A stretch of DNA of 64,000 nucleotides from Candidatus Magasanikbacteria bacterium CG11_big_fil_rev_8_21_14_0_20_39_34 (GTDB taxonomy: Bacteria > Patescibacteriota > Patescibacteriia > Magasanikbacterales > UBA922). Position numbers and translations under genes: made by a program. Shown piece by piece: positions 6,067 to 62,913 of the stretch. The notes under the pieces are model-generated. The model was given only the letters and a program-made list of their open reading frames with translations. It did not search any database and was not told the DNA's origin. The stretch covers positions 315,552 through 379,551 of the forward strand of contig PCWN01000007.1 in assembly GCA_002787355.1 (NCBI GenBank). Direction: 5' to 3'. Each line of letters starts with the position of its first letter. Position 1 is the stretch's first letter.

Positions 6067-6084
6067 TAGCAAGTCTTTTTTATT

Positions 6085-6702: not shown

Positions 6703-6971
6703 CAAAATATGAAAAAAACTTGGTTTGAAAAAAGTGGCTGGATATACCCTCCTATATCTTTTGAAGGTACGCTCATGTTTTCTCTCTGTATTCTTTTTTG
6801 CTTTCATATCTTTTTCTTTTTTGACCAAAAGTCTCAGTCTATTTCAGATACACTTTATGCAGTGTTCCCCTACGTTCCCTCAATATTTCTTTTCTATACA
6901 TGGATAACATCAGAAAAAGAAAAAAAATAACCTTACTTATTTATTCATTTTTATTTATTTAAAAATATAAT

Positions 6972-7334
6972 ATGGAACTATATTTGCAACCATTTAAAAA
7001 ATATGCCGTTTTTGAAGGACGTGCCAGTCGAGCCGAATACTGGGGCTTTATATTGATAATTTTTATTCTTGCCATAATTATTTTACTGCCAATTTCCCTT
7101 ATGACCGGGGCAGCATATGAAACGGTTGTGAATATCTTTGCAGTATTTCTTTTTCTTCCTTCTCTTGCAGTAACCGTACGAAGACTTCACGATATCAACA
7201 AGAGTGGCTGGTATGTTCTTTTAAACCTTATCCCTTTTATTGGAGGTCTTATTTTGTTTATCTTTGCAGTAAAATCTGGGGATCAAGGTGATAATAAGTA
7301 TGGCCCCTCACCAAAACAAATGACATCAACCTAA
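6972..7334 (+). CDS. DUF805 (YhaH-like) inner-membrane protein
   Basis: A GRASRAEYWGF opening and the RRLHDINKSGW motif are characteristic of DUF805. It has three TM segments. Confidence 0.7.
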   Translation: MELYLQPFKKYAVFEGRASRAEYWGFILIIFILAIIILLPISLMTGAAYETVVNIFAVFLFLPSLAVTVRRLHDINKSGWYVLLNLIPFIGGLILFIFAVKSGDQGDNKYGPSPKQMTST

Positions 7335-7349
7335 AAAACACAACCTTAA

Positions 7350-7371
7350 CCGCCCTAACGGGCGGTTTTTT
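7350..7371 (+). terminator. Rho-independent terminator (ccgccc-taac-gggcgg + T6)
   Basis: A GC hairpin plus a T-run lies immediately after the DUF805 stop. Confidence 0.7.
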
Positions 7372-7594
7372 ATTTGCAAGAAAATCCTTTATGGAATTCA
7401 AAGCAAAAATATGTTACGATAGACAAAAATGTATTTTTTATACGCATATTTTATATTGCAACAGAAACATGAAAAATACTCTTTTTATTGAAAAACTCAA
7501 ATGTAAAGACATCATTTTTTTATTTGGTATTAGTTTTCTTTTTTACGATTTTCTTCTCAAAGGCTTAGGAGTTGCAATCCCCGTATAAAAATAT

Positions 7595-8515
7595 ATGAAA
7601 TCAAAAAATATCATTGAAATTACGGATTTCACACAAAAGGAGCTCTCTCATCTTCTCCAACGTACTCTCTATTTTAAGAAACACGAGAAAAAAATATTTT
7701 CCTTTCTCAAGAATAAACGCGTAGGTTTGCTCTTTGACTCTGCTTCTCTGAGAACAAAGCTTACTTTTGAAATTGCTACTCACAAACTTGGTGGGTTCCC
7801 CTACTTTGTCGATATAAATGCCATTACCCATGAAGACGGTATAGCCCGAGAAAGTTATGAAGATATTGTAGATACATTAGATAAATTTGTAGATGTATAT
7901 GTTGTACGAGACTATTCCCAAAATATTCTTAATGTTCTCAAAAGAAAAACCTCCCCACCAATAATAAATGGCTTTTCGATCACCGGGCATCCCAGTCAAG
8001 CTCTTGCAGACCTATCAACTATACTCTACAAGAAAAAGACGCTTGAAACACTTCAAATATGTACTGTATGCCCTTCCAATGGAAGTGGTGTGATGGAATC
8101 TTTCATTTATGGAGTATTAATGCTTGGTGGAAATATTACCATGATAACTCCAACCGGAAAATTTTTGGGAAAAAATAAAAATTTTTTTGATGTCATTAAA
8201 AACCTTTCCGGACAATTGCACATAACAAATAAAGTTGACCCTACCATTTCCACTATGGATGTTCTCTATGTAGATGAATGGTGGTTTCATAGTCCAAAGT
8301 TCCTTCAAAAGAAACCACCCCAAAAATATAGAGTTGATTCAACGTTTTTAAAGAATGCAAAAGAAGACATTATGATCCTTCACTGCCTCCCCGCACATCA
8401 TGATCGTGAAATAAGTCATGAGGTTTTCAATTCTCCCAATTCCGCTGTTTTTGAAGAAGCGGAATTTCGGGTCTACTCCGCCATGGCACTCCTTGAATAC
8501 CTTTCTAAAGGATAA
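7595..8515 (+). CDS. Aspartate/ornithine carbamoyltransferase family protein (OTCase-like)
   Basis: A carbamoyl-phosphate-binding S-x-R-T motif (SASLRTKLTFE), the HPSQALADL (HPxQ) motif, and HCLPAHHDRE (HCLP). Confidence 0.75.
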   Translation: MKSKNIIEITDFTQKELSHLLQRTLYFKKHEKKIFSFLKNKRVGLLFDSASLRTKLTFEIATHKLGGFPYFVDINAITHEDGIARESYEDIVDTLDKFVDVYVVRDYSQNILNVLKRKTSPPIINGFSITGHPSQALADLSTILYKKKTLETLQICTVCPSNGSGVMESFIYGVLMLGGNITMITPTGKFLGKNKNFFDVIKNLSGQLHITNKVDPTISTMDVLYVDEWWFHSPKFLQKKPPQKYRVDSTFLKNAKEDIMILHCLPAHHDREISHEVFNSPNSAVFEEAEFRVYSAMALLEYLSKG

Positions 8516-8596
8516 ATTGGCAGTATTCCTCTTTTCTGGTATCATAAAAATACCTCTAGCATTAAAGGTACCTTATTCACTTCTTGATATTCCCAT

Positions 8597-9286
8597 ATGA
8601 AAAACATGATCCTTGTCGTGGTACTCATAATACTTGCCATAATTGCTGTGGCCATGGTCCTGCCCCGACAGAAGCAAAAAAAAAATAATCCCCCTTCTCA
8701 ACCTCATTCAAATGAAGAAACTCTTATGCTCGAACCTGTTCCCTCAACAACCCTCAAAGCGACCTTCTCTGGTGGCTGCTTCTGGTGCATGGAACCTGCC
8801 TTTGAAAAAATTGATGGTACGTATAATGTGTTATCTGGATATACTGGAGATAGTAAAGAAACAGCAGAATATTACAAAGTGGGAAGCGGAAAGACACAAC
8901 ATCGTGAATCTATAGAAATGGATTATGATCCTGCCAAAGTTACCTATGACCATCTGGTTGAAGTTTATTTTTGGCAAATTGATCCAACCGATGGCGATGG
9001 ACAGTTTGCAGACCGCGGATATCAGTATTCTCCTGCAATATACTATCATACTGAAGAACAAAGAAAGATTGCGGAAGACTATATTAGAATGCTTGAAGAT
9101 TCTCACAAATTTGATAAACCCATAGCCGTTGAAGTACTTCCAGCGATGCCATTTTACTCTGCAGAAATTTACCATCAGGATTTTTACAAAAAAAATCCAA
9201 CAGAATACAACCGATATAAGAAAGGTTCTGGAAGAGTTGACTATATTGAAAAAACTTGGCCAGAAGGACATCCAGACGGCATGTAA
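8597..9286 (+). CDS. msrA: Peptide methionine sulfoxide reductase MsrA, membrane-anchored
   Basis: An N-terminal TM helix followed by the MsrA active-site motif GGCFWCME and conserved YHQDFY. Confidence 0.85.
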   Translation: MKNMILVVVLIILAIIAVAMVLPRQKQKKNNPPSQPHSNEETLMLEPVPSTTLKATFSGGCFWCMEPAFEKIDGTYNVLSGYTGDSKETAEYYKVGSGKTQHRESIEMDYDPAKVTYDHLVEVYFWQIDPTDGDGQFADRGYQYSPAIYYHTEEQRKIAEDYIRMLEDSHKFDKPIAVEVLPAMPFYSAEIYHQDFYKKNPTEYNRYKKGSGRVDYIEKTWPEGHPDGM

Positions 9287-9319
9287 TTTCTCTTACTCCA
9301 TGCGTTTATCCACCAACAT

Positions 9320-9904
9320 ATGAAAAGATGTAGCTGGGTGTCTTTGGATCCACTCTATATTCAATATCACGATAAAGAATGGGGCGTTCCCATTTTTCAG
9401 GACAGAAAACTCTTTGAACTTCTTATCCTAGAAGGAGCTCAAGCAGGTCTCTCTTGGTTTACCGTACTCAAAAAGAGAAAAAATTATCAAAAAGCCTTTG
9501 ATAATTTTAACTACAAAAAAATAGCCCTCTACTCTAAAAAACAGGAGCAAGCACTCCTAAAAAATGAAGGGATAATCCGTAACAAGTTAAAGATTTCATC
9601 CACCATTAAAAATGCTCAAGTTTTTCTGGATATTCAGAAGGAATTTGGAAGTTTTCATAATTATCTTTGGGGTTATGTCCAGGGGAAACCTCTTCAAAAC
9701 AAAAGAAAAAGTACACGTGAAATTCCAGCATCCACTCCTCTTTCCGATACCATATCACGTGATCTCAAAAAGAGAGGTATGAACTTTGTGGGATCTACCA
9801 TCATCTATGCTTATCTACAAGCAATAGGTATTGTGAATGACCACGAAGTAAGCTGCTTTCGATATAAACAATTAAAAAATAGCAAAACAGAAATTATTAG
9901 ATAA
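9320..9904 (+). CDS. tag: DNA-3-methyladenine glycosylase I
   Basis: Tag family hallmarks: CSWVSLDPLYIQYHDKEWGVP, EGAQAGLSW, and CFRY near the C-terminus. Confidence 0.8.
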   Translation: MKRCSWVSLDPLYIQYHDKEWGVPIFQDRKLFELLILEGAQAGLSWFTVLKKRKNYQKAFDNFNYKKIALYSKKQEQALLKNEGIIRNKLKISSTIKNAQVFLDIQKEFGSFHNYLWGYVQGKPLQNKRKSTREIPASTPLSDTISRDLKKRGMNFVGSTIIYAYLQAIGIVNDHEVSCFRYKQLKNSKTEIIR

Positions 9905-9966
9905 TTTTTTCTTTTTCTGCTATAATATACCCATAAATTAGACCTTACTGAACTTTTGCATTCTTT

Positions 9967-10518
9967 ATGCAATATAAAGACAACGATCCAAATCCTCAAA
10001 AGGCATACCCATCTGCTGAAACACAACCATCCGCACCAGAACGGCAGGAATTTACAGAAAAAGCTCCTAACACAGCAAAACAAGAATTTGCTGATTTTGC
10101 TGTAGAACAAAAAGAATCCAAAGAAAACTCAGAAAAAGAAAACAATTTTTTAGGTGATGCACTTCGAGAAATCCGAAATAAACTTTCCAGAAACCAAAAG
10201 AAAAAAACTGTTGTTTTTCCAAAACATAAAGACCAACTTACTGAAGAAATAGAAAAAATTATGTCAGAAGGCCTTGGTGATACCTTCAAACAACTGGATC
10301 GTGTACAACAGATGGAATTTAAACTTAAGGGTGAAGAAACTGCCTATAAAATCCGTCAAATTCTTCAATCTTCCCATGTCCGAATGAAAAACATTTTTCG
10401 ACTTCTCCTCGAATGGCTCAAAATGCTTCCTGGAATAAACCGTTTTTTCCTGGAACAAGAAGCAAAAATTAAAGCAGAACACCTCCTTCATTTGCGCGAA
10501 AAGCATAAAAAGCACTGA
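9967..10518 (+). CDS. Hypothetical charged/coiled protein, first gene of the ATPase operon
   Basis: 183 aa, rich in K/E. Its stop lies 3 nt before the next start. Confidence 0.4.
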   Translation: MQYKDNDPNPQKAYPSAETQPSAPERQEFTEKAPNTAKQEFADFAVEQKESKENSEKENNFLGDALREIRNKLSRNQKKKTVVFPKHKDQLTEEIEKIMSEGLGDTFKQLDRVQQMEFKLKGEETAYKIRQILQSSHVRMKNIFRLLLEWLKMLPGINRFFLEQEAKIKAEHLLHLREKHKKH

Positions 10519-16738: not shown

Positions 16739-17725
16739 ATGAAATCCTCCATTCTTACTTTATGTATAATTTTCTGTGCCCTCTTTGGAGGTATTTCTTT
16801 TGTGTCTGCAACAAATTTACCCGTACCCTTTACCATACAAGCCCCCGATGAACACTGGAGAGAGCCTTGGGAAAATGCCTGTGAAGAAGCCACACTCACG
16901 ATGGTAAACCTCTATTACCAAATGGCAATACCACAAAGAACTATACCTGTAGATCAGGCCATTGCAGAGATTCTTCGTGTTTTTCGTATAAAAAATGCTA
17001 CTCTTGGCACCAGTTTTGATGAGAATGCAGAAAAAATAACTTTTCTTATAAATAACTATTTCCCTTTTGAAGCCTACACGGTAGAAAACCCAACCCTGGA
17101 ACAGATAAAGGCAGAAATAGATGCTCAAAGACCGGTTATAGGACTCTTCTATGGACGAGATCTTCACAACCAATATTTTCGTGATGGTGGACCTGCGTAC
17201 CATACCTTCCCCATAAGTGGTTATGATGATGAAAAACAGGAGTTTATTGTTCAAGAGACGGGTACACGCCATGGTCTTGACTTTCGCTATTCTTATGCTA
17301 CAATAATGCGTGCTATCCACGATTTTGTGCCCCACAATGTACAAAATAGTCCCAAAAGGATCATCTTTACCCGCACCATGACCGCGGAAACTCGTAATCT
17401 GGATGCAGATAAAGATGGACTTTCAAAAAGTGAAGAAATACTGTCAGGAACGGATATGTTTCTTCCCGATACGGACTTTGACGGATTTTCGGATGGTATT
17501 GAGGTAAAATATGACTACTCTCCAAAAATTGCAGAGTTGAAACTTCCCACAGGAACCCTCATAAAAAGCAAACATGCTCCAAGTGTGTATCTCCTTGACG
17601 GAAGGAGCAAAAGATTGATTCTCTCTGAAAAAGCTTTTTTAGAGAGAGGATATAAATGGGAAAATATTTTAGATGTCAGTGATGGATTTTTGCGTAGGCT
17701 CAGTGATGGAGCCAATATAGAATAA
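16739..17725 (+). CDS. Secreted papain-like cysteine peptidase (Peptidase_C39-like) with C-terminal extension
   Basis: Signal peptide. A catalytic Cys context NACEEATLTMVNLYY and a downstream GGPAYHTFPISGYDD (His). The C-terminus is D-rich. Confidence 0.55.
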   Translation: MKSSILTLCIIFCALFGGISFVSATNLPVPFTIQAPDEHWREPWENACEEATLTMVNLYYQMAIPQRTIPVDQAIAEILRVFRIKNATLGTSFDENAEKITFLINNYFPFEAYTVENPTLEQIKAEIDAQRPVIGLFYGRDLHNQYFRDGGPAYHTFPISGYDDEKQEFIVQETGTRHGLDFRYSYATIMRAIHDFVPHNVQNSPKRIIFTRTMTAETRNLDADKDGLSKSEEILSGTDMFLPDTDFDGFSDGIEVKYDYSPKIAELKLPTGTLIKSKHAPSVYLLDGRSKRLILSEKAFLERGYKWENILDVSDGFLRRLSDGANIE

Positions 17726-17734
17726 CAACATTAT

Positions 17735-17805
17735 TCGGGGATCGTCTAATGGTAGGACTCCAGGTTCTGGTCCTGGCTATCGGGGTTCGAGTCCCTGTCC
17801 CCGAG
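17735..17805 (+). tRNA. tRNA-Gln (anticodon CTG)
   Basis: Hand-folded cloverleaf. Acceptor stem TCGGGGA/TCCCCGA with U1:A72 and G73. 4-bp D-stem with a GG loop. Anticodon stem CCAGG/CCTGG with loop TTCTGGT. T-arm CGGGG-TTCGAGT-CCCTG. Confidence 0.85.
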
Positions 17806-17820
17806 CAAGCAAGGGTGAGC

Positions 17821-17845
17821 AGGCACGAGAGTGCCTGTTTTCTTG
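17821..17845 (+). terminator. Hairpin + T-run after the tRNA
   Basis: aggcac-gaga-gtgcct followed by gttttcttg. Confidence 0.5.
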
Positions 17846-17863
17846 TATTCTGAGCCATTTTTT

Positions 17864-17879
17864 AGAAGTTCGGAAGTTG
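17864..17879. repeat. Direct repeat copy 1 (AGAAGTTCGGAAGTTG), candidate att-like island boundary
   Basis: It matches 24918-24933 at 15 of 16 positions, with 13 of 13 in the core. It sits about 60 nt past the tRNA-Gln 3' end. Confidence 0.4.
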
Positions 17880-17930
17880 CGTTTAGCTTGGGCATCCATT
17901 CAGCCAAAAACTGATATGCTGGTGTCGCTG

Positions 17931-18254
17931 TTACGTGTACTTCGCGTTCAAGCGTGAGTTCCATATGAGAGAAAAAACGGGACAATAAGAGACGTTTTTC
18001 TTCGGGTGAGGTTTGTCTTCTCGTGCGTTAAATGCGAGCCTGTGAATCTCTAGCCCTACTTCGTAGTAGTTATCGACCCGATCTTCGAGATTTTCAAGCT
18101 GTTTCAAAATAGAGCGTTTCTCACGTTTGTAATCATCCGCTTTTCTCTTGTAATACTCGTCGGTTATCACGCCGTCCAGCCTGTCCTCGTACATTTTGTC
18201 GAGACGACCCTCGAGCCTCTCTATAGCCTCGTTGAGCTGTTTGCGTGATGTCAT
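17931..18254 (-). pseudogene. Recombinase-like remnant (coiled-coil segment resembling the C-terminal region of large serine recombinases); likely a decayed integrase
   Basis: 107 aa with LEGRLDKMYEDRLDGVITDEYYKRKADDYKREKRSILKQLENLE. It has no catalytic domain. The surrounding roughly 900 bp has about 50% GC and only fragmentary ORFs. Confidence 0.3.
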
Positions 18255-18343
18255 GGAATAATCCGTCTTGTCTTGGTTCTTTTCCTTGAGAGCCTCGTTA
18301 TGTGATTGTTTATACAGACACCAGCGAGAAGAGAGGTCAAGCG

Positions 18344-18517
18344 TTATCGTTTATGCTTGGTCTTGTCGACCAATGTAAACTTCTTCGCTTCACCTGCATA
18401 CGGCGGAGCTGTTTCACCTTTGGTCAACGTGATTTCACGTCTAGTTCCTGACGGTCGATATTGACCCGAAACAGGTGCTTTGTGCCCCGTCGATGTTGTT
18501 ACCTTTTTGTTAGGCAT
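18344..18517 (-). CDS. Small basic hypothetical ORF (57 aa) in the island's decayed region
   Basis: Hand-translated MPNKKVTTSTGHKAPVSGQYRPSGTRREITLTKGETAPPYAGEAKKFTLVDKTKHKR. It falls below the ORF-track length cutoff. Confidence 0.2.
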   Translation of the reverse strand: MPNKKVTTSTGHKAPVSGQYRPSGTRREITLTKGETAPPYAGEAKKFTLVDKTKHKR

Positions 18518-18697
18518 ACATTTTCGGTTAGCCGATGAATAAAACGGGTAGCGTCCGACTTTTACTCCGCCCCGCGGAGTAAAAACCTCAATAGATTTGC
18601 ACTCCGGAGGGGGTAAAGTGAGCTGATCCGAGAGTATTCAAAGGGGGCTGAAATTATCTCGCTGGCATCTATATAAACAACTGATTGGAATGAACGC

Positions 18698-19297
18698 TTA
18701 CAAATTTCTGATGACCTTTACGACCACACCCTGCACGTCTACCTGTCTATGATACGTTGGCTCGTATTTCCCATTGGCCGGCTGTAGCCGTATCCTGTTC
18801 TGCTCTTGGTATATCCGCTTTAATGTCGCCTCGCTGTCTTCGAGAAGTGCAACGACCGTATCGCCATTGTCCGCACTCTTTTGCTGTTTTGCGATGATAA
18901 TATCTCCGTCGAGGATACCGTCTTCAATCATGGAATCGCCTTTGGCTCTTAGAGCGAATAGCCTACCTCGCAGAGCGTACTCCCTGGCGACTTTGACTGT
19001 TGTATCGTCGTATTCCTCAAGAGCTTCAATGGGTGAACCGCATGAAATAGTCCCTTTTATGGGAACCTCGATATAATCCGTGCGTTTTTTGGGCAGTGAG
19101 AGGCCTCTTTCTCGACGGTCGTACCGTTTGAGGAAGCCTTTATCCACCAAAGCCGAAACACGGTCGTGTACGGTTGATATGGCGGATAATTCAAAATGAT
19201 CTCGGATGTCATCGAAAGAGGGGGCGTACCCGTTCTGGTCGATGTACGAGGTGATGTAGTCGAGCGTTTCTCGTTGTCTTTTCGTCAGCGTGTTCAT
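18698..19297 (-). CDS. lexA: LexA-family transcriptional repressor (wHTH + S24 autopeptidase)
   Basis: N-terminal LexA DNA-binding domain (LTKRQRETLDYITSYIDQNGYAPSFDDI). Catalytic Ser in AKGDSMIEDGI and Lys in ATLKRIY. An Ala-Gly cleavage-site-like RAKG is present. The start is taken at MNTL. Confidence 0.8.
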   Translation of the reverse strand: MNTLTKRQRETLDYITSYIDQNGYAPSFDDIRDHFELSAISTVHDRVSALVDKGFLKRYDRRERGLSLPKKRTDYIEVPIKGTISCGSPIEALEEYDDTTVKVAREYALRGRLFALRAKGDSMIEDGILDGDIIIAKQQKSADNGDTVVALLEDSEATLKRIYQEQNRIRLQPANGKYEPTYHRQVDVQGVVVKVIRNL

Positions 19298-19346
19298 GTG
19301 GTATATTATAACCGAAGAAAATCCGAATAGCAAATCCGAAAAAGTG

Positions 19347-19375
19347 TGGACAAGTGCTCAAAAAAGGAGTATCAT
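19347..19375 (+). promoter_or_regulatory. Putative sigma70-type promoter for the mod operon (TGGACA-N17-TATCAT), inside the divergent lexA-mod intergenic region
   Basis: Hexamers read directly from the sequence. The adjacent direct repeat AAATCCGAA x2 at about 19321-19346 is a possible operator. Confidence 0.3.
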
Positions 19376-19405
19376 ATAAATCGTTAGACAAAACCCGTAC
19401 TAATT

Positions 19406-20953
19406 ATGCCTACACTCAACTGGATCGGTAAAGAGGCAGTAGTCAATCATGACAAAGAAGTCCCTTTCAAGCTCCTCAAAAAAGTAAAATCTCAATCAGT
19501 AGGTGAAAATTCACACAATCTGATTATCCATGGCGATAACCTAGAGGCATTAAAAGCATTAATGCCTTATTATGTTGGAAAAATAAAATGTATCTACATT
19601 GATCCCCCTTACAACACTGGAAACGAGGGGTGGGTTTATAACGATAAGGTTAATTCGCCAAAAATAAAAAAGTGGCTTGGAAAGGTTGTAGGTAATGAAC
19701 CTACAGACCTCTGTAGACATGATAAGTGGTTGTGCATGATGTATCCACGCTTAAAACTTTTGCGTGATCTTTTGCGTGATGATGGTGCTATTTTTATATC
19801 TATTGATGACAACGAACATTGTCATTTGAAAATGATTTTAGATGAAATGTTTGGCATTGAAAATTTTGTTACAAACATCATTTGGCAAAAAAAATATACA
19901 CAAAGTAATGATGCAAAATATTTTTCATCTACGCATGATTTTATAGTGTGCTATGCAAAAAATATTAAGAATGCGGATTTCAAAATAAATCTTTTAGAAA
20001 GAACGGAGAAACAGAACGCACGTTACAAAAATTTGGATAATGACCCACGGGGGCCATGGATGACACAGCCCCTACATGCAAAAAGTGGAAATGACAAAAC
20101 CTATACGTTTACATTTCAAAATGGTGTTAAATGGAAGCCCCCAGCAGGTACTTTTCCGAGATATAGTTTAGACACTTTGCGGAAGGCTGAGATGAACGGT
20201 GAAATATGGTTTGGAGCAAAAGGGACTGCCGTGCCACGTCTTAAAAAATACTTGAATGAAATGAAAGACGGCGTTATACCTAAAACAATTTGGCTTTATG
20301 ATGAGGTTGGTAGTAATGACGATGCAAAAAAAGAATTAAAGAATGTTTTTGACGACAATCCCTTTGCGACACCAAAGCCAACAAAACTATTGAAAACAAT
20401 TTTTAAAATTTCATCAGGGAAAGACGATATTGTATTAGATTCATTTGCTGGATCAGGCACTGCTGGACATTCAATTTTGGATCTCAATAAAGAAGACGGC
20501 GGAAAAAGAAAATTTATTCTTGTAGAAATGGAAGATGATATTGCTAAAAATATCACCGCCGAAAGAATAAGACGAGTGTGCAAAACAAATGAATATTCAG
20601 ATGGTTTTGAATATTGTGAGCTTACAAAACCACTTTTTGATGAAAATGGTCAAATAGAGAAAGAGTGTGACTTCAATCAGTTTGCCACATATATCTATTT
20701 TACCGAAACGCAGACAAACATCGACAAGGCAAAAATCAATAAGAATTTTATCGGTGAATACAGCGACACACATTTTTATCTTATCTACAAAGAGAAAGGC
20801 AAAAATGTTCTTACCAAAACTTTTTTACGACAGCTCAAAAAAGACGGTGCGAGAAAAATCGTTTATGCTGATCGCTGTATGGTTGACGATGATATTCTTG
20901 AAGAATACAACATTGTATTTAAGCAAATCCCTTACGAGGTAAAAGTTTACTAA
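19406..20953 (+). CDS. mod: Type III restriction-modification system methyltransferase (Mod), N6-adenine beta-class
   Basis: Motif IV DPPY (CIYIDPPYNTG) precedes motif I FAGSGTAGHS. The N-terminus is Mod-like (IIHGDNLEALKAL). Confidence 0.8.
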   Translation: MPTLNWIGKEAVVNHDKEVPFKLLKKVKSQSVGENSHNLIIHGDNLEALKALMPYYVGKIKCIYIDPPYNTGNEGWVYNDKVNSPKIKKWLGKVVGNEPTDLCRHDKWLCMMYPRLKLLRDLLRDDGAIFISIDDNEHCHLKMILDEMFGIENFVTNIIWQKKYTQSNDAKYFSSTHDFIVCYAKNIKNADFKINLLERTEKQNARYKNLDNDPRGPWMTQPLHAKSGNDKTYTFTFQNGVKWKPPAGTFPRYSLDTLRKAEMNGEIWFGAKGTAVPRLKKYLNEMKDGVIPKTIWLYDEVGSNDDAKKELKNVFDDNPFATPKPTKLLKTIFKISSGKDDIVLDSFAGSGTAGHSILDLNKEDGGKRKFILVEMEDDIAKNITAERIRRVCKTNEYSDGFEYCELTKPLFDENGQIEKECDFNQFATYIYFTETQTNIDKAKINKNFIGEYSDTHFYLIYKEKGKNVLTKTFLRQLKKDGARKIVYADRCMVDDDILEEYNIVFKQIPYEVKVY

Positions 20954-20957
20954 TCCT

Positions 20958-23222
20958 ATGCAACTAAAAACCTATCAGCAACAAGCCCTTGAGACGTTGC
21001 AAAACTACCTCGAGGAAATGAAGAAAGTCGGCTCAAAATATGCGTTCATGGGCACGACTGATACGCCGTACAATAGTGAGTATTTTGGTGAAACACCTTT
21101 TGTCTGTATCAAGATTCCGACCGGTGGTGGAAAGACAATGGTCGGTTGTCATGCAACGGTTGAAATCATGCGTAAAGCCCTTGCTTATAAAATGGAGCGC
21201 GGTATTGTAATGTGGTTTGTACCGTCAGAAGCAATCAAGACACAGACATTGCGTAAATTCAAAGACCGAAATGACTGGCACAGACGTATCCTTGATGAGA
21301 GTTTTGAAAATGGCGTGCGTATTTTTTCAAATGAAGAAGCACTCCGTATTCGCAAAGAAGATGTTGACGACAACCTCTGTATTATCATTTCAAGCCTTGA
21401 GGCGTTCCGAAAAGAAAAGAAGCTCCAAAACAAATACAAGGTTTATCAGGAGAACGGTGCACTTCTTAGCTTTTTTGAACATATCAAGAGTGAAGACGGG
21501 TTAGAAAAAGATGAAGAAGGAACGGTTATCAATTCACTTGCAAACGTCATCCGCATGGATAATCCACTTATCGTTATTGATGAGGGGCATAAAACACAAA
21601 CAAAACTCTCTATCGACTTTTTGAGCGACCTCAATCCGTCCTTTATTGTGGAATATACCGCTACTCCTCGCAAGGGTAGTAATATACTCGTGGATATTTC
21701 TGCGTCTGCTCTCAAGGAAGAAAACATGGTGAAAATCCCTATTGTCCTTGAAAGTAGTAACCAATGGGGCAATGCCATTGTACGAGGTATGGAGCAGCGG
21801 GATGAGCTGGAAAAAGAGGCAAAGAAATTAAAATCCGAGTATATTCGACCGATTGCTCTTATTCAAGCACAGCCACATAGCAAGACACAAAAGAACGTTA
21901 CGGTAGAAGAAGTCAAAGACTTTCTTCTCAGGGCGAAAATCCCCGAGGATCAAATCGCAACTAAAACATCCAATACAAATGAACTCGAGGGCGTAGACTT
22001 GTTTAGTAAAAAGTGTAAAATTCGTTATATCATCACCGTAAGCGCGCTTGCTGAGGGTTGGGATTGTTCCTTTGCGTATGCGCTTATCTCTGTTGCGAAC
22101 GTGGGATCAAAAATTGCTGTTGAGCAGATTATCGGACGTATCTTACGTATGCCATACGCCGAGAAAAAAACTATCGAAAGCCTCAATCGTTCATATATTT
22201 TTGCGTCGGCAAAAAACTTTAACGAGGCGGCAACTCAGATTATCTCCGGCTTAGAAGCTAACGGATACAGTAAACACGACTTGGTAAGTAGATCAAATAA
22301 AGACGAGAAATACGAACTTGAAGTAGAGCGAACAGTAGACGAAGACTTTGCTATACCAATGATGAGCCTAGACGGTGACAAACTCTCGTTTGAAGATCTT
22401 GTAGGAGAAAAATTTGAACTTGCAAAACAAAACCCTGACTTTGACTTTGATATTCACTGGGATAGCGACGGTCGCGCGATTATTGATATTGAAGGTGACA
22501 AATGGACGAAAGGACGACAACTAATGCTACACCTCACATACAGGGATAAAAACTTCTCTCGAGAAGAATTGACCCAATGGCTCGACAAAAAGCTCCGTTT
22601 TACACTCCTTGATAAGCAGGACAAAGTGGCATTTATTAAAAAAGTTATTGACGGACAGCTCAAGCAGAAATCTCTTGCCGACTTATCAGTCAATCGTTAT
22701 CTATTCCGTGATCGTCTTGATAAAGCAATCAACGATATTTTAGAGGAATACGCAAAGAAACAATTTGACGCACAAATGAAAAAAGGAGAGGTGAAACTTA
22801 AGAAGTTTGAAGCGTTCCCTGCCTCTATCATACTCGGGCAAGAAATACCGCAGTCGTTCAACAAAAGCTACTACGAAAAAGTAGACAAACTCAATAAAGA
22901 AGAATTGAACTTTATCGAACGCCTTGACCTAGATACGTTGCCAAACATAGAATTTTGGATTAGAAACCGAGAAAAAAGAGATCCATTCTATATTCAAGGC
23001 TGGCGTAAAGGAAAATTCTATCCCGACTTTATCGTAAAAACAAAAAAAGGAAATATTGTTGCGCTTGAATGGAAAGGTGAAGACCGTATATCAAATGACG
23101 ATACAGAATACAAAGTTGCTATTGGTGAAACGTGGCAGGATTTGAGCAAGGGTAAATTACACTTCTTTCTTGTTCATAATGGGAATGTGGAGGAGGTTTT
23201 GAATGAACTAAAACAAAAATAA
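20958..23222 (+). CDS. res: Type III restriction enzyme Res subunit (SF2 helicase + PD-(D/E)xK nuclease)
   Basis: Walker A PTGGGKT, DEAH-like VIDEGHK, and a C-terminal PDF...EWKGE nuclease-like motif. It starts 4 nt after mod. Confidence 0.8.
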   Translation: MQLKTYQQQALETLQNYLEEMKKVGSKYAFMGTTDTPYNSEYFGETPFVCIKIPTGGGKTMVGCHATVEIMRKALAYKMERGIVMWFVPSEAIKTQTLRKFKDRNDWHRRILDESFENGVRIFSNEEALRIRKEDVDDNLCIIISSLEAFRKEKKLQNKYKVYQENGALLSFFEHIKSEDGLEKDEEGTVINSLANVIRMDNPLIVIDEGHKTQTKLSIDFLSDLNPSFIVEYTATPRKGSNILVDISASALKEENMVKIPIVLESSNQWGNAIVRGMEQRDELEKEAKKLKSEYIRPIALIQAQPHSKTQKNVTVEEVKDFLLRAKIPEDQIATKTSNTNELEGVDLFSKKCKIRYIITVSALAEGWDCSFAYALISVANVGSKIAVEQIIGRILRMPYAEKKTIESLNRSYIFASAKNFNEAATQIISGLEANGYSKHDLVSRSNKDEKYELEVERTVDEDFAIPMMSLDGDKLSFEDLVGEKFELAKQNPDFDFDIHWDSDGRAIIDIEGDKWTKGRQLMLHLTYRDKNFSREELTQWLDKKLRFTLLDKQDKVAFIKKVIDGQLKQKSLADLSVNRYLFRDRLDKAINDILEEYAKKQFDAQMKKGEVKLKKFEAFPASIILGQEIPQSFNKSYYEKVDKLNKEELNFIERLDLDTLPNIEFWIRNREKRDPFYIQGWRKGKFYPDFIVKTKKGNIVALEWKGEDRISNDDTEYKVAIGETWQDLSKGKLHFFLVHNGNVEEVLNELKQK

Positions 23223-23235
23223 CAGACAAAATTGT

Positions 23236-24132
23236 ATGTCATGGGAAGATACATTTAAATCGTGGGGGGCTGCCCCAGGTACAACAGAACAGCAAAAAAT
23301 GGAAAATGCTGAGAATGCTGTTCGTAAGGCAATTAACGCTGAAACTGTGCTTAAAAACATGGATATTTCGATTATCCCGCAGGGCTCATACAAGTCTCGA
23401 ACGAATGTAAGGCAAGATAGTGATGTGGATATTTGTATTTGTCTGAACTCTACTTTTTTTCCAAGATATCCGATTGGTAAGACAAAAGAAGATTATGGCA
23501 ATATCGATGGCAGTATAAACTTTGATGAGTATAGAAATCTGGTGCAAAGAGCCTTGCAGAATTATTTTGGAACAGAATATGTTACACCTGGCAATAAAGC
23601 ATTTGATATACACTCAAATACATCTAGAGTTGATGCTGATGTTGTACCTGCATTTGCCTACCGGTATTATCATGGAGAGGGTGAAAACGATTATCAACAA
23701 CCACTCGGCATCGCTTTTCTGACAAATAACGAGAAAAAAAAGATAATAAATTGGCCTCATCATACTTATGATAACGGCAAAGAAAAACAGCAACGTACAG
23801 GACAACGCTATAAAAAAGTGGTTAGAATCATCAAAAAATTGAGAAATAAAATGCAAGAAGAAAGTATTTCAGAATCACAGGATATAGCATCTTTTTTGAT
23901 AGAAAGTATGGTTTGGAATGCACCAGATAGTCATTTCAATCGTGATACTTATACTGCAGACGTGCGTGCTGTTCTGGCATATTGTTTTAATGAAACTTTA
24001 CCCAATGGGAGTCATGGAAAGCTTGGGGAGGTAAATGATTTTAAGTATTTATTTGGGGATCACCAGCCATGGTCAAGAGAACGAGCTCATAAATTTTTTT
24101 CTTCAGCCTGGGATTATTTAGGATTTGAATAA
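23236..24132 (+). CDS. cGAS/DncV-like nucleotidyltransferase (CD-NTase / SMODS-type)
   Basis: GS-x11-DVD motif (QGSYKSRTNVRQDSDVDICI) plus a third acidic residue in DADVVPAF. Its size is about 300 aa. It starts 13 nt after res. Confidence 0.65.
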   Translation: MSWEDTFKSWGAAPGTTEQQKMENAENAVRKAINAETVLKNMDISIIPQGSYKSRTNVRQDSDVDICICLNSTFFPRYPIGKTKEDYGNIDGSINFDEYRNLVQRALQNYFGTEYVTPGNKAFDIHSNTSRVDADVVPAFAYRYYHGEGENDYQQPLGIAFLTNNEKKKIINWPHHTYDNGKEKQQRTGQRYKKVVRIIKKLRNKMQEESISESQDIASFLIESMVWNAPDSHFNRDTYTADVRAVLAYCFNETLPNGSHGKLGEVNDFKYLFGDHQPWSRERAHKFFSSAWDYLGFE

Positions 24133-24134
24133 AT

Positions 24135-24752
24135 ATGGAAAAAGTTGATAGGAAAATAAGAGCATATTCTCAGGTGATTACTTTTTTAGTAGTATGGTTT
24201 GTTGTTGTTATTCTGACTAACTCATACTCTACGACTGACTTGCTCCCCGCCATTAAAAGAATCCCTTTAGCTATATCAATTTATGTAATTCTTGCAAGTA
24301 TTTTTGTAAAGTGGATATGGCGTTGGAAAATTTTTCAAGGTTGGTTAATAAAAGTGCCTGATCTACAAGGCACATGGGAAGGTGAATTAAAAAGTGATTG
24401 GATAAATCCCGAAACAGGAAAAGGTATTGATCCAATTCCTATGCTATTAGTGATAAAACAAACCTTTACTTCCATAAATTGTACATTGATGACAAAAGAA
24501 TCTACCAGCTATAGTACGACTGCGGACTTTGAATATGTTCATGGAGGTGACGCTGTTTATCTAACATATAATTATACAAACCGGCCTAAAGCAACTATAA
24601 GAGATAGAAGTGCTATACACGACGGTGCTGCAATTTTGAAAGTAATTAAGGATCCTGAACGCAGACTTGAGGGTGAATATTGGACAAGTAGAAAAACACG
24701 GGGCGATATTAGTATACATTTTGGTTCAAAGGATTTGGCTGAAAGATTTTAA
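24135..24752 (+). CDS. 2TM membrane effector (Cap15-like / SLATT-like) partnered with the CD-NTase
   Basis: Two N-terminal TM helices and an approximately 130-aa soluble beta-rich C-terminal domain. It starts 2 nt after the NTase stop. Confidence 0.55.
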   Translation: MEKVDRKIRAYSQVITFLVVWFVVVILTNSYSTTDLLPAIKRIPLAISIYVILASIFVKWIWRWKIFQGWLIKVPDLQGTWEGELKSDWINPETGKGIDPIPMLLVIKQTFTSINCTLMTKESTSYSTTADFEYVHGGDAVYLTYNYTNRPKATIRDRSAIHDGAAILKVIKDPERRLEGEYWTSRKTRGDISIHFGSKDLAERF

Positions 24753-24917
24753 GAGTTATGTACGATAAAATTTGGTATTTTTACCCCCTCAAATTCTCAA
24801 AAAAAATATATAGTAGCGAGAGTAAAATTCTTTGCTAATACGCAAACACCTGAATATGCCGTTGTGCTCGGCTCTTTAGATGAAAGACTCACCCCATTTC
24901 AATCGACTCTCTAAAAG

Positions 24918-24933
24918 AAAAGTTCGGAAGTTG
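24918..24933. repeat. Direct repeat copy 2 (AAAAGTTCGGAAGTTG)
   Basis: Partner of 17864-17879. It lies just before a bidirectional terminator. Confidence 0.4.
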
Positions 24934-24952
24934 TCCAAGTAGCAGAGCAAAA

Positions 24953-24984
24953 AAACTCAAACTCGTAATGGTTTGAGTTTTTTG
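24953..24984. terminator. Bidirectional terminator hairpin (aaactcaaac-N8-gtttgagttt + T-run)
   Basis: Read directly from the sequence. It closes the island on the right. Confidence 0.55.
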
Positions 24985-25022
24985 ATATAATAAATGCATT
25001 ATTATTATTCTAAATAGAATAT

Positions 25023-25640
25023 ATGAAAAAGTATTTCTTTATTATGGCATTTGCACTTATTGGATTTGCCTATGCAGGAACTGCTTCTGCACAAATGGGT
25101 ATGATGAATACCAATGGCTCTGTGCATAATGAAGCCATAGACGCAATGATTTTACAAATAACAGAAAGCCAAAATATTACTGATCCAACACAGATAGACT
25201 GTAGTAAAGTTTCCAATGAACAATTTGAAAGTCTGGGAGATGCGTTCATGCAAACCATGGCAAGCAATGACAAGCAACATGAAGCAATGGACTCAATGAT
25301 GGGTGGGGAAGGTTCTGAAAGCCTCACACAAGCACACAGAAATATGGGGCAATCCTACCTTGGCTGTAGCACAGGACGAACTGCAGTAGCCATGCCTATG
25401 ATGGCAAATAATGGAATGATGCAAGGTATGCAATTCCAAGGAATTGAACAACGATTCCCACATCAAAATACAAATATGAACTGGGACAATATGAACCGGG
25501 GAAATATGAAATGGCATGGACAGGGAACATACGCTTTTTCAGCCTTACATATTATTTGTGCAGTGATTACCACGCTTCTTGTCTGGACACTCCTTGTAGT
25601 ATGGATTCTTACTCTTCTTAAGGGACTCAGGAAAAAATAG
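25023..25640 (+). CDS. Secreted, C-terminally membrane-anchored Met-rich protein (possible Cu/metal-binding)
   Basis: Signal peptide. Many Met clusters (MGMMNTNG, MDSMMGG, MPMMANNGMMQGMQFQG). A C-terminal TM helix. Confidence 0.5.
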   Translation: MKKYFFIMAFALIGFAYAGTASAQMGMMNTNGSVHNEAIDAMILQITESQNITDPTQIDCSKVSNEQFESLGDAFMQTMASNDKQHEAMDSMMGGEGSESLTQAHRNMGQSYLGCSTGRTAVAMPMMANNGMMQGMQFQGIEQRFPHQNTNMNWDNMNRGNMKWHGQGTYAFSALHIICAVITTLLVWTLLVVWILTLLKGLRKK

Positions 25641-25744
25641 GGAAATATATTCTACAAAAAAATAGCGCCTTTGTGGCGCTATTTTAGCTTTACATGTACC
25701 GTTTGAAAATGATAAAATATTTGCGTTATTCATCATATTTTTTT

Positions 25745-26116
25745 ATGAAAAAAACAAAAATTCTTTTTTGGGTCACTACCACCATTATCTTTCTTTTTGA
25801 AGGAGTACTTACCGCATTTACCTCTCAAAGTGATATGGCAAGAGAAAGCATACAACACCTTGGATACCCGATCTACTTTGGTACCATGCTTGCCGTGTTT
25901 AAAGTTTTGGGTGCATTGGTTCTTATCATTCCAGCCATTCCAAAACGTTTCAAAGAGTGGGCCTATGTAGGTTTTGGAATTGATTTTATTGCTGCACTCG
26001 TTAGTCTTTGGGCGGTAGATGGTTTCAACGCATCCCTTGTACTCCCCGTAGTCTTCATGGCACTCCTTGCCATTTCCTACACCTCTTATCATAAGATGAT
26101 GCCAGAAAAAGCATAA
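25745..26116 (+). CDS. DoxX-family membrane protein
   Basis: About 125 aa with 4 TM. The start could instead be 25694. A terminator follows. Confidence 0.5.
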   Translation: MKKTKILFWVTTTIIFLFEGVLTAFTSQSDMARESIQHLGYPIYFGTMLAVFKVLGALVLIIPAIPKRFKEWAYVGFGIDFIAALVSLWAVDGFNASLVLPVVFMALLAISYTSYHKMMPEKA

Positions 26117-26132
26117 AATCTTTTTCCCAAAA

Positions 26133-26165
26133 ACCATCCGCTCAGAAACGGGTGGTTTTTTATTT
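26133..26165 (+). terminator. Rho-independent terminator
   Basis: ccatccgc-tcagaaa-cgggtgg followed by tttttt. Confidence 0.65.
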
Positions 26166-26216
26166 CTTTCAAAGTTGGAAAAAAATTGTTATACTATATC
26201 CATTCACATAAAAAAT

Positions 26217-26702
26217 ATGAAAAGATTAAAACACCCACTCAAACTTATCCTTTTTATTATCCTTTGTCACCTTGCAGGAATTTTTGGATCTATCTTTACC
26301 GCCATGAATGTTCAGACCTGGTATACAGAGTTGTATAAACCATGGTTTACACCTCCTGCGTGGGTTTTTGCACCCGTTTGGTTTATTCTCTATACCCTCA
26401 TGGGAATAGCTATTTTCCTCATTTATGAAAAGCGCGTTCTTCTCAAAAGAAAATATAAACACCTTGCTATAGCTTTTTTTTGGGCACAGCTTTTACTCAA
26501 TACTATTTGGTCCCCTATTTTCTTTGGTCTTCAGGACCCAATGCTTGCTTTTTTTGAAATTATACTCCTCCTCATTGTGCTTATAATTACCATCTTCTTC
26601 TTTACCAAAGTAGAGAGAAAAGCTGCATTTTTGCTCTTCCCCTACCTTATCTGGGCATGTTTTGCTGCCGCACTCAATGCAGGAATTTGGCTTCTCAACT
26701 AA
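26217..26702 (+). CDS. tspO: TspO/MBR tryptophan-rich sensory protein
   Basis: WYTELYKPWFTPPAWVFAPVWFILYTLMGIA matches the TspO N-terminal consensus. It has 5 TM. Confidence 0.8.
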   Translation: MKRLKHPLKLILFIILCHLAGIFGSIFTAMNVQTWYTELYKPWFTPPAWVFAPVWFILYTLMGIAIFLIYEKRVLLKRKYKHLAIAFFWAQLLLNTIWSPIFFGLQDPMLAFFEIILLLIVLIITIFFFTKVERKAAFLLFPYLIWACFAAALNAGIWLLN

Positions 26703-62685: not shown

Positions 62686-62726
62686 AGGTAGGAAAAAATT
62701 GATATGCTGTCAATTTTTTCCTGCCT
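62686..62726 (+). other. 18-19 bp perfect RNA hairpin (with G-U pairs) in the 5' leader
   Basis: aggtaggaaaaaattgata / tgtcaattttttcctgcct, read from the sequence. It sits at the AT-rich/GC-rich junction. Confidence 0.5.
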
Positions 62727-62913
62727 AGCTCTCTCCGCTGTTGCGCGAAGGGCGGAAGTAGGGCTTGGGTCCCACAGCATGGGTCCTTCTCCGGTAATTT
62801 CTCCGGAGTGACGTTACCTTCCATGCACGGTAGTAATACTGGTGGGAAAAAGATGCAATGTGCGCTCTATCGGGAAAGGTGCCCGAGAAAGCGTAGGATA
62901 CAGGAGTCTTGTC

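Follow-up and report, generated by a model that had tools for sequence, protein, structure and literature searches.

A LexA gene facing a restriction and CBASS operon in Candidatus Magasanikbacteria is probably the surviving head of a filamentous prophage

Lambda CI is the type of the S24 prophage repressors, and the filamentous phage CTXphi is under the control of its host's LexA. In CapH/CapP systems, DNA damage relieves a repressor that adjoins a CBASS operon. Restriction-modification (R-M) methyltransferases of the SsoII / Ecl18kI type autoregulate through an N-terminal DNA-binding domain, and C-protein controllers are also known. CPR bacteria have tiny genomes with few regulators, and their defence proceeds largely by R-M. 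A LexA/SOS repressor with a direct-repeat LexA box is said to have been described for Patescibacteria by Sanchez-Osuna, Barbe and Erill in 2017 (reportedly Environ Microbiol 19:3465).

Here, we analysed a 64-kb stretch of a Candidatus Magasanikbacteria genome (hereafter the window), in which a lexA gene lies divergent from genes for R-M and CBASS. On the sequence evidence, this lexA most likely does not serve the defence operon as a dedicated regulator, nor is it likely to be a housekeeping gene in its native position. We consider it probable that the gene is the surviving head of a degraded filamentous (inovirus-like) prophage at a tRNA gene, with a TTCGG repeat as its own operator.

The LexA protein and its operator

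The gene and its control elements are as follows.

18698 to 19297, minus strand: lexA, 199 aa, with a winged helix-turn-helix (HTH) at residues 1-65, a Cys86-Gly87 cleavage site and an S24 domain with Ser122/Lys160
19305 to 19333, minus strand: lexA promoter TTGCTA-N17-TATAAT, its -10 ending 7 nt before the ATG
19312 to 19340, minus strand: candidate LexA operator of three direct TTCGG half-sites (19336-40, 19323-27 and 19312-16) at spacings of 13 and 11 bp

The open reading frame spans 18698..19333 on the minus strand and, read from the ATG at 19297, encodes the 199-aa protein. Residues 1-65 match LexA_DNA_bind (Pfam PF01726, E=2.7e-16), residues 80-193 match Peptidase_S24 (PF00717, E=2.4e-27), and the NCBIfam equivalog model TIGR00498 (lexA) gives 173.8 bits, above its cut-off of 110.95. 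The winged HTH, the S24 domain and this score bear out the full LexA architecture claimed in a preliminary description of the locus, which had also proposed an Ala-Gly-like cleavage region. Indeed, Cys86-Gly87, the cleavage position throughout the phage-linked clade described below, aligns with Ala-Gly in other Patescibacteria LexAs; Cys-Gly is the natural cleavage site of E. coli UmuD. The Ser/Lys dyad motifs named at the same time, GDSM (S122) and TLKR (K160), are invariant in an alignment of 28 relatives. A protein search found relatives at 95, 91 and 79% identity, and the protein is 53-63% identical to named LexAs of Magasanikbacteria, Falkowbacteria and Parcubacteria. We take the product of 18698-19297 to be a genuine and intact LexA-family repressor, predicted to cleave itself and, as an orthologue, functional-looking.

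The lexA promoter (19333-19305, minus strand) was absent from the preliminary description. Since 7 nt separate its -10 from the ATG, the lexA mRNA would be leaderless or nearly so. The promoter geometry is conserved in the relative loci L007, L096, L092, L013 and others, and a conserved TTCGG-N6-TTCGG sits between -35 and -10. At 52 Patescibacteria loci, the lexA promoter contains this direct repeat, and from these promoters we built a position weight matrix (PWM) of the LexA box; 80 lexA upstream regions show TTTCGG-N5-TTTCGG, then TATAAT. TTCGG-N5-9-TTCGG occurs a single time in the 64 kb, at the lexA promoter, against 0.43 occurrences expected, and the PWM scores 24.3 bits at 19308-19330 compared to 11.8 bits at the second-best site of the window. 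In seven relatives, too, a strong site lies solely at lexA's own promoter. The PWM scan of the 64-kb window found no second LexA box, and no recA or uvr gene is present in it. Because the direct repeat recurs in 52 Patescibacteria lexA promoters and stands once in the window, we regard it as the LexA box of this lineage, predicted to be bound by LexA for autoregulation. Direct-repeat LexA motifs are credited in PMC7739468 to a 2017 Patescibacteria study, which PMC8565304 also cites.

The direct repeat first described as "AAATCCGAA x2" is thus real, but consists of three TTCGG half-sites on the lexA strand rather than two copies. It had been assigned to the region shared with the divergent gene mod; it lies between -35 and -10 of the lexA promoter, off the core of the mod promoter. 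Likewise, the stated lack of a classical SOS box holds for boxes of the E. coli or Bacillus type, whereas the direct repeat is itself the predicted SOS box of the lineage. A LexA dimer on the tandem half-sites, which cover -35, spacer and -10, would shut off its own near-leaderless transcript, and activated RecA would lift this repression by stimulating self-cleavage at Cys86-Gly87 via Ser122/Lys160.

A phage-linked LexA clade and an island at tRNA-Gln

Among the LexA relatives of 53-95% identity whose downstream DNA was available, every one heads an inovirus-like prophage with Zot, a rolling-circle Rep and a serine integrase. An intact element carries, all on one strand, lexA, a 57-aa ORF, a ~270-aa ORF, an 87-aa ORF, small coat-like ORFs, a ~560-aa ORF, an 81-aa ORF, Zot/pI, the rolling-circle Rep and a large serine integrase beside a tRNA, where Zot/pI, Rep and integrase were assigned by PHROGs. 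Zot/pI, Rep and small coat genes follow lexA in L007, L013, L092, L099 and L101/L102, and in nine of ten IMG/VR viral contigs with lexA; contigs that begin exactly at lexA may mirror trimming by gene content and are not independent proof of a phage gene. A search for circular IMG/VR phage genomes yielded none with terminal repeats. Anything LexA-like is found in 18 of 50,697 reference phage records, at identities of <=40%, and a literature search returned nothing on LexA in CPR inoviruses or on LexA-methyltransferase fusions.

The phage-linked LexAs fall into a single clade, whose sister group comprises stand-alone LexAs of the host type with ordinary neighbours such as Fur, AhpC and UvrB, and the integration flanks of the elements vary (tRNA-Asn, tRNA-Gln, HtrA, GIY-YIG). 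When the relatives were scanned, no convincing LexA box was found ahead of phage genes in intact elements. Since no other LexA box was found in these elements, LexA cleavage would in them also release the co-directional phage genes, by read-through from the lexA promoter.

In the window, the following features accompany lexA on its downstream side.

17735 to 17806, plus strand: tRNA-Gln(CTG), proposed integration site, without an insert in relative L103
17746 to 18254, minus strand: frameshifted serine integrase relic, the C-terminal ~160 codons, in two pieces 68% and 54% identical to L092/L093
18344 to 18517, minus strand: 57-aa ORF accompanying lexA, within a block of 95% identity, with a weak YjzC-like match

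The relic aligns with the end of the L092/L093 integrase, a 551-aa protein that matches phrog_95; the relic abuts tRNA-Gln here, and the intact integrase abuts tRNA-Asn in L092 and L013. The match of the 57-aa ORF to Pfam YjzC (E=0.0055) is below the cut-off, and its homologues come after lexA in L007, L092, L097 and L109. Zot/pI, rolling-circle Rep and small coat genes are missing from the window, i.e. the prophage here is a remnant. A displaced tRNA 3' fragment was sought in the window, L092, L093 and L013, and none was found. The preliminary description had mentioned neither tRNA-Gln nor the integrase relic, nor the G+C contrast of lexA given below.

In L103, the order is dnaX - C39 - tRNA-Gln - folD with no insert, from which we conclude that 17.8-26.7 kb is a variable island and that lexA appears to lie off any ancestral site. 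In a further relative, the same place is taken by a different insert. The preliminary description had allowed for a LexA paralog as well as for the chromosome's sole LexA. The observations on the relatives bear on the alternative that the gene is the host's own, only and vertically inherited LexA at its normal site, beside which prophage, R-M and CBASS genes have piled up. The protein does pass the TIGR00498 equivalog model. In addition, L023, L058 and L060 have a lexA or lexA-methyltransferase gene no more than a few kb from dnaX-tRNA-Gln; a native lexA site deduced from this dnaX synteny was considered and rejected, as tRNA-Gln stands between dnaX and lexA in all three and the site is empty in L103. 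An integration hot spot at tRNA-Gln accounts for the apparent synteny, and the two nearest relatives of the locus have no lexA between tRNA-Gln and folD.

Further points can be read in favour of a host gene. Among the best 80 loci, drawn from GTDB representatives other than the source genome, the L012 and L013 genomes have one lexA each and no second one, for which reason the phage-linked copy may be the cell's only LexA. Co-divergence of LexA with phage proteins is weak (Spearman 0.2-0.25), which would fit modular shuffling but also a host lexA next to which elements integrate repeatedly, and the DsbA / copper-ATPase block common to the divergent side of L007, L092 and L097 could be read as conserved host synteny. 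Against this stand the composition and the distribution of the gene: lexA has a G+C content of 0.49, 11 points above the 0.38 of host DNA (integrase relic, 0.46), and both of its flanks differ among clade members. A 1043-bp block (18298-19340) is 95% identical to L007, which stems from another metagenome, while the DNA on either side is unrelated and DsbA / copper-resistance genes occupy the divergent side in L007. A neighbouring host gene, in comparison, has no relative above 53% protein identity among 5.8 billion proteins, as opposed to the LexA relatives at 95, 91 and 79%. Altogether, we judge a vertically inherited host LexA to be distinctly unlikely.

The preferred reading, a prophage remnant, would thus have the following history. 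An inovirus-like integrative element inserting at tRNA-Gln would have brought lexA into the Candidatus Magasanikbacteria genome, and an internal deletion would then have removed the interior, sparing lexA together with its control region, as well as the 57-aa ORF and the final third of the integrase.

The outward promoter and the defence operon

On the other side of lexA, the window contains:

19345 to 19353, plus strand: DnaA-box-like 9-mer TGTGGACAA (TTGTCCACA on the lexA strand), containing TGGACA
19347 to 19375, plus strand: candidate outward promoter TGGACA-N17-TATCAT, facing mod, with an inferred start near 19382 and a 24-nt leader
19406 to 23222, plus strand: predicted type III R-M genes mod (19406-20953; N6_N4_Mtase, PF01555, 4.3e-38) and res (20958-23222; ResIII, PF04851, 7.6e-14)
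23236 to 24752, plus strand: minimal CBASS by profile matches, with CD-NTase (23236-24132) and Cap15 effector (24135-24752)

Our analysis agrees with the preliminary description on the 108-bp region shared by lexA and mod (19298-19405), on the TGGACA-N17-TATCAT promoter candidate (TGGACA 19347-19352 and TATCAT 19370-19375, plus strand, 10 of 12 consensus positions) and on the neighbours as an R-M/CBASS operon, with Mod (N6_N4_Mtase), Res (ResIII), CD-NTase and Cap15. The CD-NTase matches the DS2_2 anti-phage nucleotidyltransferase model NF053871 (2.3e-49) and CBASS cyclase models (1e-14), all below NCBIfam cut-offs, and the effector matches Cap15_CD_rec (2e-21) above its cut-off. Of 12 phage-clade loci, 7 have TGGACA-N17-TAnnnT at the offset seen here, compared to 0.23 expected in shuffles, and two of these seven also face R-M genes. 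In 37 of 80 loci, the 150 bp upstream of lexA contain the DnaA-box-like motif TT[AG]TCCACA, at a density of 3.11 per kb versus 0.022 per kb elsewhere.

Control of the neighbouring restriction/CBASS operon by LexA is possible. In the model of the preliminary description, LexA would directly repress the divergent mod-res-CD-NTase-cap15 operon, and DNA damage sensed by RecA would switch on restriction and abortive infection. Several features speak for this alternative: the outward promoter is conserved along with the rest of the lexA control region, its -35 begins 6 bp past the end of the outermost TTCGG half-site, and the A-rich DNA upstream of it is the operator itself. The window and L096 have identical 108-bp spacers before two unrelated R-M cassettes, and four independent assemblies break at 19386/19387, just past the promoter, as if cassettes were exchanged behind it. 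Moreover, the CBASS promoter of L055 (TTGACT-N18-TATAAT) would start within the LexA operator, one distant locus has CBASS divergent from lexA, and in most of the Patescibacteria loci examined an R-M methyltransferase is fused to LexA or encoded directly behind it. However, no LexA box overlaps -35, -10 or start of the mod promoter, and the PWM finds none in 19341-24752. The third half-site stands at a non-canonical spacing of 13 bp, and the usual geometry of the clade places 17 bp plus the lexA -35 between operator and outward promoter. The 95%-identical lexA module of L007 faces unrelated genes, as described above, and in 80 loci the genes adjoining lexA on its 5' side are for the most part ordinary housekeeping genes. 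Given positions of about -44 to -68 for the LexA sites relative to the mod start, LexA would at most modulate this promoter rather than block it, and we consider direct repression unlikely.

Alternatively, R-M and CBASS genes might be cargo of lexA's mobile element, expressed from the outward promoter in lysogeny like rexAB, which adjoins cI in lambda. This is in line with the conservation of the promoter and with a variable content on the divergent side: type III R-M and CBASS here, Tsp45I R-M and Shedu in L096, a methyltransferase and Endonuclease_7 in L101/L102, and DsbA / copper genes in L007 and L092. Also, no attL was found between lexA and the defence genes. Yet the G+C content of mod through cap15 (19406-24752) is 0.376, i.e. 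host-like and different from lexA or phage genes (0.44-0.49), 5.4 kb would be a large addition to a ~9.3-kb inovirus, and tandem accumulation of unrelated islands at tRNA genes gives the same pattern. We regard cargo as a rather unlikely explanation. Under the prophage-remnant reading, the type III R-M and CBASS operon would be a separate module of host-like G+C in the same tRNA-Gln island, its transcription probably starting at the outward promoter of the lexA control region.

Significance and relation to known systems

LexA is fused in frame to a type II R-M DNA methyltransferase in 49 of 70 representative Patescibacteria loci, and many LexA-methyltransferase loci also keep a convergent pair of HTH controller and REase. 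lexA is divergent from R-M/CBASS/Shedu genes in three loci. Housekeeping genes predominate among the 104 5'-side neighbours (80 GTDB representative loci plus L007), with defence genes scattered between them. We tentatively raise the possibility, short of favouring it, that the lexA control region serves throughout Patescibacteria as a docking and expression platform for defence cassettes, rendering methylation, restriction and, here, abortive infection responsive to RecA-sensed damage and perhaps, via the conserved DnaA-box-like site, also to DnaA. One use would be to provide more methylase at times when the cell suffers cuts in its own DNA.

If filamentous phages of CPR bacteria do carry a true LexA, one gene ties phage induction to the DNA-damage sensor of the host. 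LexA beside or fused to R-M methyltransferases, together with the three divergent defence loci, makes an SOS-linked control of defence testable, of a kind unlike CapH/CapP. For the window alone, neither lexA nor its operator is unusual within the lineage, and islands accumulating at a tRNA gene may have brought lexA next to the defence operon.

Compared to R-M systems controlled by SsoII / Ecl18kI type methyltransferases or C proteins, the relatives have LexA fused to or beside the methyltransferase, with the operator in the shared promoter. A predicted complete, cleavable LexA takes the place of a plain HTH as regulatory module, and in the window lexA is separate and divergent and the R-M system is of type III. 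With CapH/CapP, to which the preliminary description had likened it, the locus has in common the idea of a damage-relieved repressor beside a CBASS operon. A pair of HTH repressor and metallopeptidase of this type is, however, missing between 17.7 and 25 kb; the one-protein LexA has its operator on its own promoter instead of the CBASS promoter, and a complete R-M system lies between repressor and CD-NTase.

As in the lambda CI type, a self-cleaving, autoregulated S24 repressor heads a temperate phage, and inducibility by DNA damage is expected by analogy; as in CTXphi, a filamentous phage is wired to LexA. In contrast to both, the phage-borne repressor is a true LexA orthologue, with the LexA winged helix and not an XRE-type HTH, and all phage genes are co-directional behind a single predicted LexA-controlled promoter. 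Finally, the protein belongs to the same family as the direct-repeat LexA/SOS repressor of Patescibacteria, and its operator is of the kind credited to that repressor, a direct and not an inverted repeat in the lexA promoter; what differs is that the LexA clade described here is tied to an inovirus-like prophage and lies in a tRNA island.

LexA and its own promoter

The preliminary description assigned the gene a full LexA architecture (winged HTH, cleavage region, S24 GDSM/TLKR dyad), and Pfam, TIGR00498 and alignment all agree.

18698-19333, minus strand: lexA open reading frame; the ATG at 19297 gives a 199-aa product

The product matches LexA_DNA_bind (residues 1-65) and Peptidase_S24 (residues 80-193) and reaches 173.8 bits on the NCBIfam equivalog TIGR00498 (cut-off 110.95). 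An alignment with 27 relatives shows no variation at Ser122 (GDSM) or Lys160 (TLKR); in it, the cleavage position reads Cys86-Gly87 in this protein and Ala-Gly in more distant members. Cys-Gly is the natural cleavage site of E. coli UmuD, and Cys86-Gly87 is thus compatible with self-cleavage.

A direct repeat without a classical SOS box had been reported upstream. Read on the lexA strand (...cacTTGTCCACActttTTCGGATTTGCTATTCGGATTTTCTTCGGTTATAATataccacATG), the lexA-mod spacer contains three TTCGG half-sites at intervals of 13 and 11 bp, interleaved with TTGCTA-N17-TATAAT, a promoter match at 10 of 12 consensus positions; its -10 ends 7 nt before the ATG, and the lexA mRNA would therefore be leaderless or nearly so. 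TTCGG-N5-9-TTCGG occurs once in the 64-kb window (0.43 expected). Upstream regions of 80 lexA loci, taken from species-representative genomes, recurrently carry TTTCGG-N5-TTTCGG (variants TTTCTA, TTCGTA) between -35 and TATAAT. A LexA-box PWM built from 52 lexA-promoter sites, its information almost wholly in two TTCGG blocks, scores best at 19308-19330, with 24.3 bits versus 11.8 bits for the runner-up in the window. The direct repeat is thus real, but it sits on lexA's own promoter and is this lineage's predicted LexA box, positioned for autoregulation; for this reason, the absence of an SOS box holds only in the E. coli or Bacillus sense. A 2017 study of the Patescibacteria SOS response is cited in a passage of PMC7739468 among cases of LexA evolving to direct-repeat recognition.

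Two further motifs mark these promoters. The DnaA-box 9-mer TT[AG]TCCACA, perfect or near-perfect, occurs in the 150 bp upstream of lexA at 37 of the 80 loci (L012-L091), at a density of 3.11 per kb versus 0.022 per kb elsewhere (1.07 Mb of loci), a roughly 140-fold difference, and its orientation in LexAs heading inovirus-like prophages is unlike that in LexA-methyltransferase fusions. This suggests that a second regulator, perhaps DnaA, acts at lexA promoters in Patescibacteria. Separately, a strong reverse-strand promoter-like element, TTGACT-N16-18-TATAAT, is present in 24 of 79 loci (0.7 loci in shuffles; examples are L055:7472-7548, facing a CD-NTase gene, and L024, L031, L038, L043, L049 and L070). 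In 23 of the 24 it begins no more than 15 nt from the lexA ATG; the -10 of this element and the -10 of the lexA promoter overlap, and its transcript is predicted to start inside the LexA operator.

The tRNA-Gln island and an inovirus-like element

The DNA between lexA and the nearest tRNA gene holds the remains of an integrase.

17735-17806: tRNA-Gln, adjoining the integrase relic
17931-18254 and 17746-17985: integrase relic, two out-of-frame ORF pieces between tRNA-Gln and lexA

The pieces align at 68% and 54% identity with the C-terminal ~160 residues of a large serine integrase (551 aa; phrog_95) on the comparison contigs L092/L093. G+C is 0.49 in lexA and 0.46 in the relic, 0.376 from mod through cap15 and 0.38 in the rest of the window. 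At the window's end, the last ~1.3 kb (62700-64000) has a G+C of 0.65 versus 0.38 elsewhere and low-complexity, repeat-like ORFs on both strands, which could reflect a chimeric join or foreign DNA.

The window comes from a Candidatus Magasanikbacteria MAG. L103, the closest available relative at the locus, has DUF8128, SWIB, dnaX and C39 peptidase in the order of the window, followed by tRNA-Gln and directly folD, without insert (window 17807-26700 versus L103:10966-11228), and in a second relative this spot is taken by another insert of 6.7 kb (helicase/MazE). Hence, window 17.8-26.7 kb is a variable island at tRNA-Gln with lexA inside, and the tRNA-Gln to folD interval is, judging from these gene orders, a hypervariable hot spot in Magasanikbacteria. 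The island also carries a Met-rich secreted 205-aa protein (25023-25640), DoxX and TspO. Synteny with dnaX as a sign of an ancestral lexA site was rejected, the L103 interval being empty; tRNA-Gln beside dnaX is also occupied by lexA-bearing DNA in L023, L058 and L060, and is an insertion hot spot, which accounts for the synteny.

A 95%-identical LexA (P0001) is found on contigs L007-L011. The block common to L007 and the window runs from 18298 to 19340 exactly and comprises the operator, lexA and a 57-aa ORF, both flanks being unrelated; 3' of the block, L007 continues with a 269-aa ORF, an 87-aa ORF, small ORFs, a 559-591-aa ORF, an 81-aa ORF, Zot/pI (phrog_197, phrog_1675) and a rolling-circle Rep (phrog_3419). 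This phage set, collinear and co-directional, also follows lexA in every 53-95%-identity relative with downstream sequence (L012, L013, L092-L094, L097, L099, L101, L102, plus ten IMG/VR viral contigs, whose boundaries are gene-content predictions). A serine integrase closes the set where the contig is long enough and the gene not deleted; L101 has lost it. The integrase end adjoins tRNA-Asn (L092, L013), tRNA-Gln (window), HtrA (L102) or a GIY-YIG gene (L099), so insertion sites differ. A neighbour-joining tree groups the phage-linked LexAs in a single clade, sister to the stand-alone LexAs L015-L020, which lie among ordinary genes (Fur, AhpC, P-type ATPase, UvrB). In a collection of 5.8 billion proteins LexA has relatives at 95, 91 and 79% identity, unlike the neighbouring host C39 peptidase, which has none above 53%. 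Taken together, the shared block, the recurrent phage set, the LexA clade and the C39 contrast indicate that lexA most likely travels with an inovirus-like phage, of which the window holds an internally deleted copy. The unmapped left end of the element stands as a caveat on this reading, and co-divergence of LexA with the phage genes is weak. Inoviruses in CPR have been reported, LexA not being mentioned (Roux et al. 2019).

Among the representative lexA loci, neither the L012 nor the L013 genome yielded a second lexA, and the phage copy may therefore be the only LexA in these cells. The LexA of another inovirus contig, L113 (IMGVR_UViG_3300013138_000284), falls close to L019 among the host-type stand-alone LexAs and not in the phage clade, which hints at a second lexA capture or at lexA-module exchange.

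Intact elements have a single strong LexA site, that of the lexA promoter, and all phage genes lie downstream on the same strand. On the simplest reading, LexA would repress its own promoter, cleavage stimulated by RecA would open it, and read-through would increase phage gene expression; in the window copy the autoregulatory loop alone would remain.

The outward promoter and the defence operon

The R-M/CBASS neighbours are as the preliminary description had them, and both the 108-bp spacer and the promoter candidate in it are present.

19347-19375, plus strand: outward promoter candidate TGGACA-N17-TATCAT, facing mod
19345-19353: DnaA-box-like 9-mer, including this TGGACA
19406-20953: Mod
20958-23222: Res
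23236-24132: CD-NTase
24135-24752: Cap15

Direct repression of the mod-to-cap15 operon by LexA appears unlikely. The PWM finds no LexA site on the mod promoter core or anywhere within 19341-24752, the half-sites fall roughly at -44, -57 and -68 relative to a predicted start near 19382, the one nearest the mod promoter is at off-phase spacing, and the 95%-identical module in L007 faces DsbA and copper genes. Some modulation of the operon, by LexA or DnaA, is a little easier to credit. TGGACA-N17-TAnnnT recurs in 7 of 12 phage-clade loci (0.23 in shuffles), always 43-54 nt from the lexA ATG, which makes the outward promoter a part of lexA's control region. L096 (Logan SRR26425194, 104-4736; LexA 79% identical) likewise has a spacer of 108 bp, and its divergent genes encode a Tsp45I-family REase, an N6_N4 methyltransferase, a Shedu SduA_C protein and a T5orf172/GIY-YIG protein; in L101/L102 lexA faces a methyltransferase and Endonuclease_7. 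Contigs of four independent assemblies (L002, L003, L004, L006) stop at 19386/19387, just past the outward promoter. For three of these contigs the other end falls at 17290-17295, within the C39 peptidase gene; both breaks suggest assembly-graph branch points, with co-occurring strains differing just beyond them.

SOS coupling of the defence operon is plausible in outline, yet the predicted operator's placement does not support it. Altogether, the preliminary observation is confirmed and its interpretation supported in part: the gene is a real LexA with a lineage-typical predicted operator, most likely phage-borne and stranded in a tRNA-Gln island beside a type III R-M and CBASS operon.

LexA-methyltransferase fusions

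The ORF could be called at 70 of the representative Patescibacteria lexA loci, and at 49 of these LexA is continuous with an in-frame DNA methyltransferase, giving products of 470-640 aa.

Fusion loci: L014, L021, L023-L029, L031-L034, L036-L041, L043-L049, L051, L053-L062, L065, L070-L076, L079, L083, L084, L086
Examples: L027:5651-7222; L055:7549-9072

By domain match the extensions are N6_N4_Mtase (34), D12 (14), C5 (6) and Eco57I (1), and all eight fusions that were read from end to end retain the cleavage site and the Ser/Lys dyad. Behind the fusions lie type II REases (MvaI/BcnI, BglII, Bsp6I, TaqI, AlwI, TdeIII, PstI), often with a small HTH controller; L030 and L035 encode the methyltransferase as a gene of its own immediately after lexA, and the MAG CBDVEN01 carries two fusions (L021, L083). 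For one C5 fusion, the three-domain architecture is shared by at least 120 relatives in its cluster (identity 70% or higher), labelled "transcriptional repressor LexA" by NCBI and "DNA (cytosine-5)-methyltransferase 1" by JGI. Within the literature library searched, no paper was found on the fusions, on L055 or on the DnaA-box motif at lexA.

In L055 (JACRHY010000019, Parcubacteria group) a compact island at 5954-9981, of G+C 0.34-0.37 in a 0.50 host, sits between tRNA-Val and tRNA-Ala/Ile. Here a CD-NTase and a Cap15-like gene are divergent from a LexA-methyltransferase fusion, which is followed by a TaqI-family REase and an HTH_3 controller. L055 is a second, independent lexA/CBASS/R-M neighbourhood, and the linkage of LexA to R-M across the phylum makes SOS-defence coupling more interesting.
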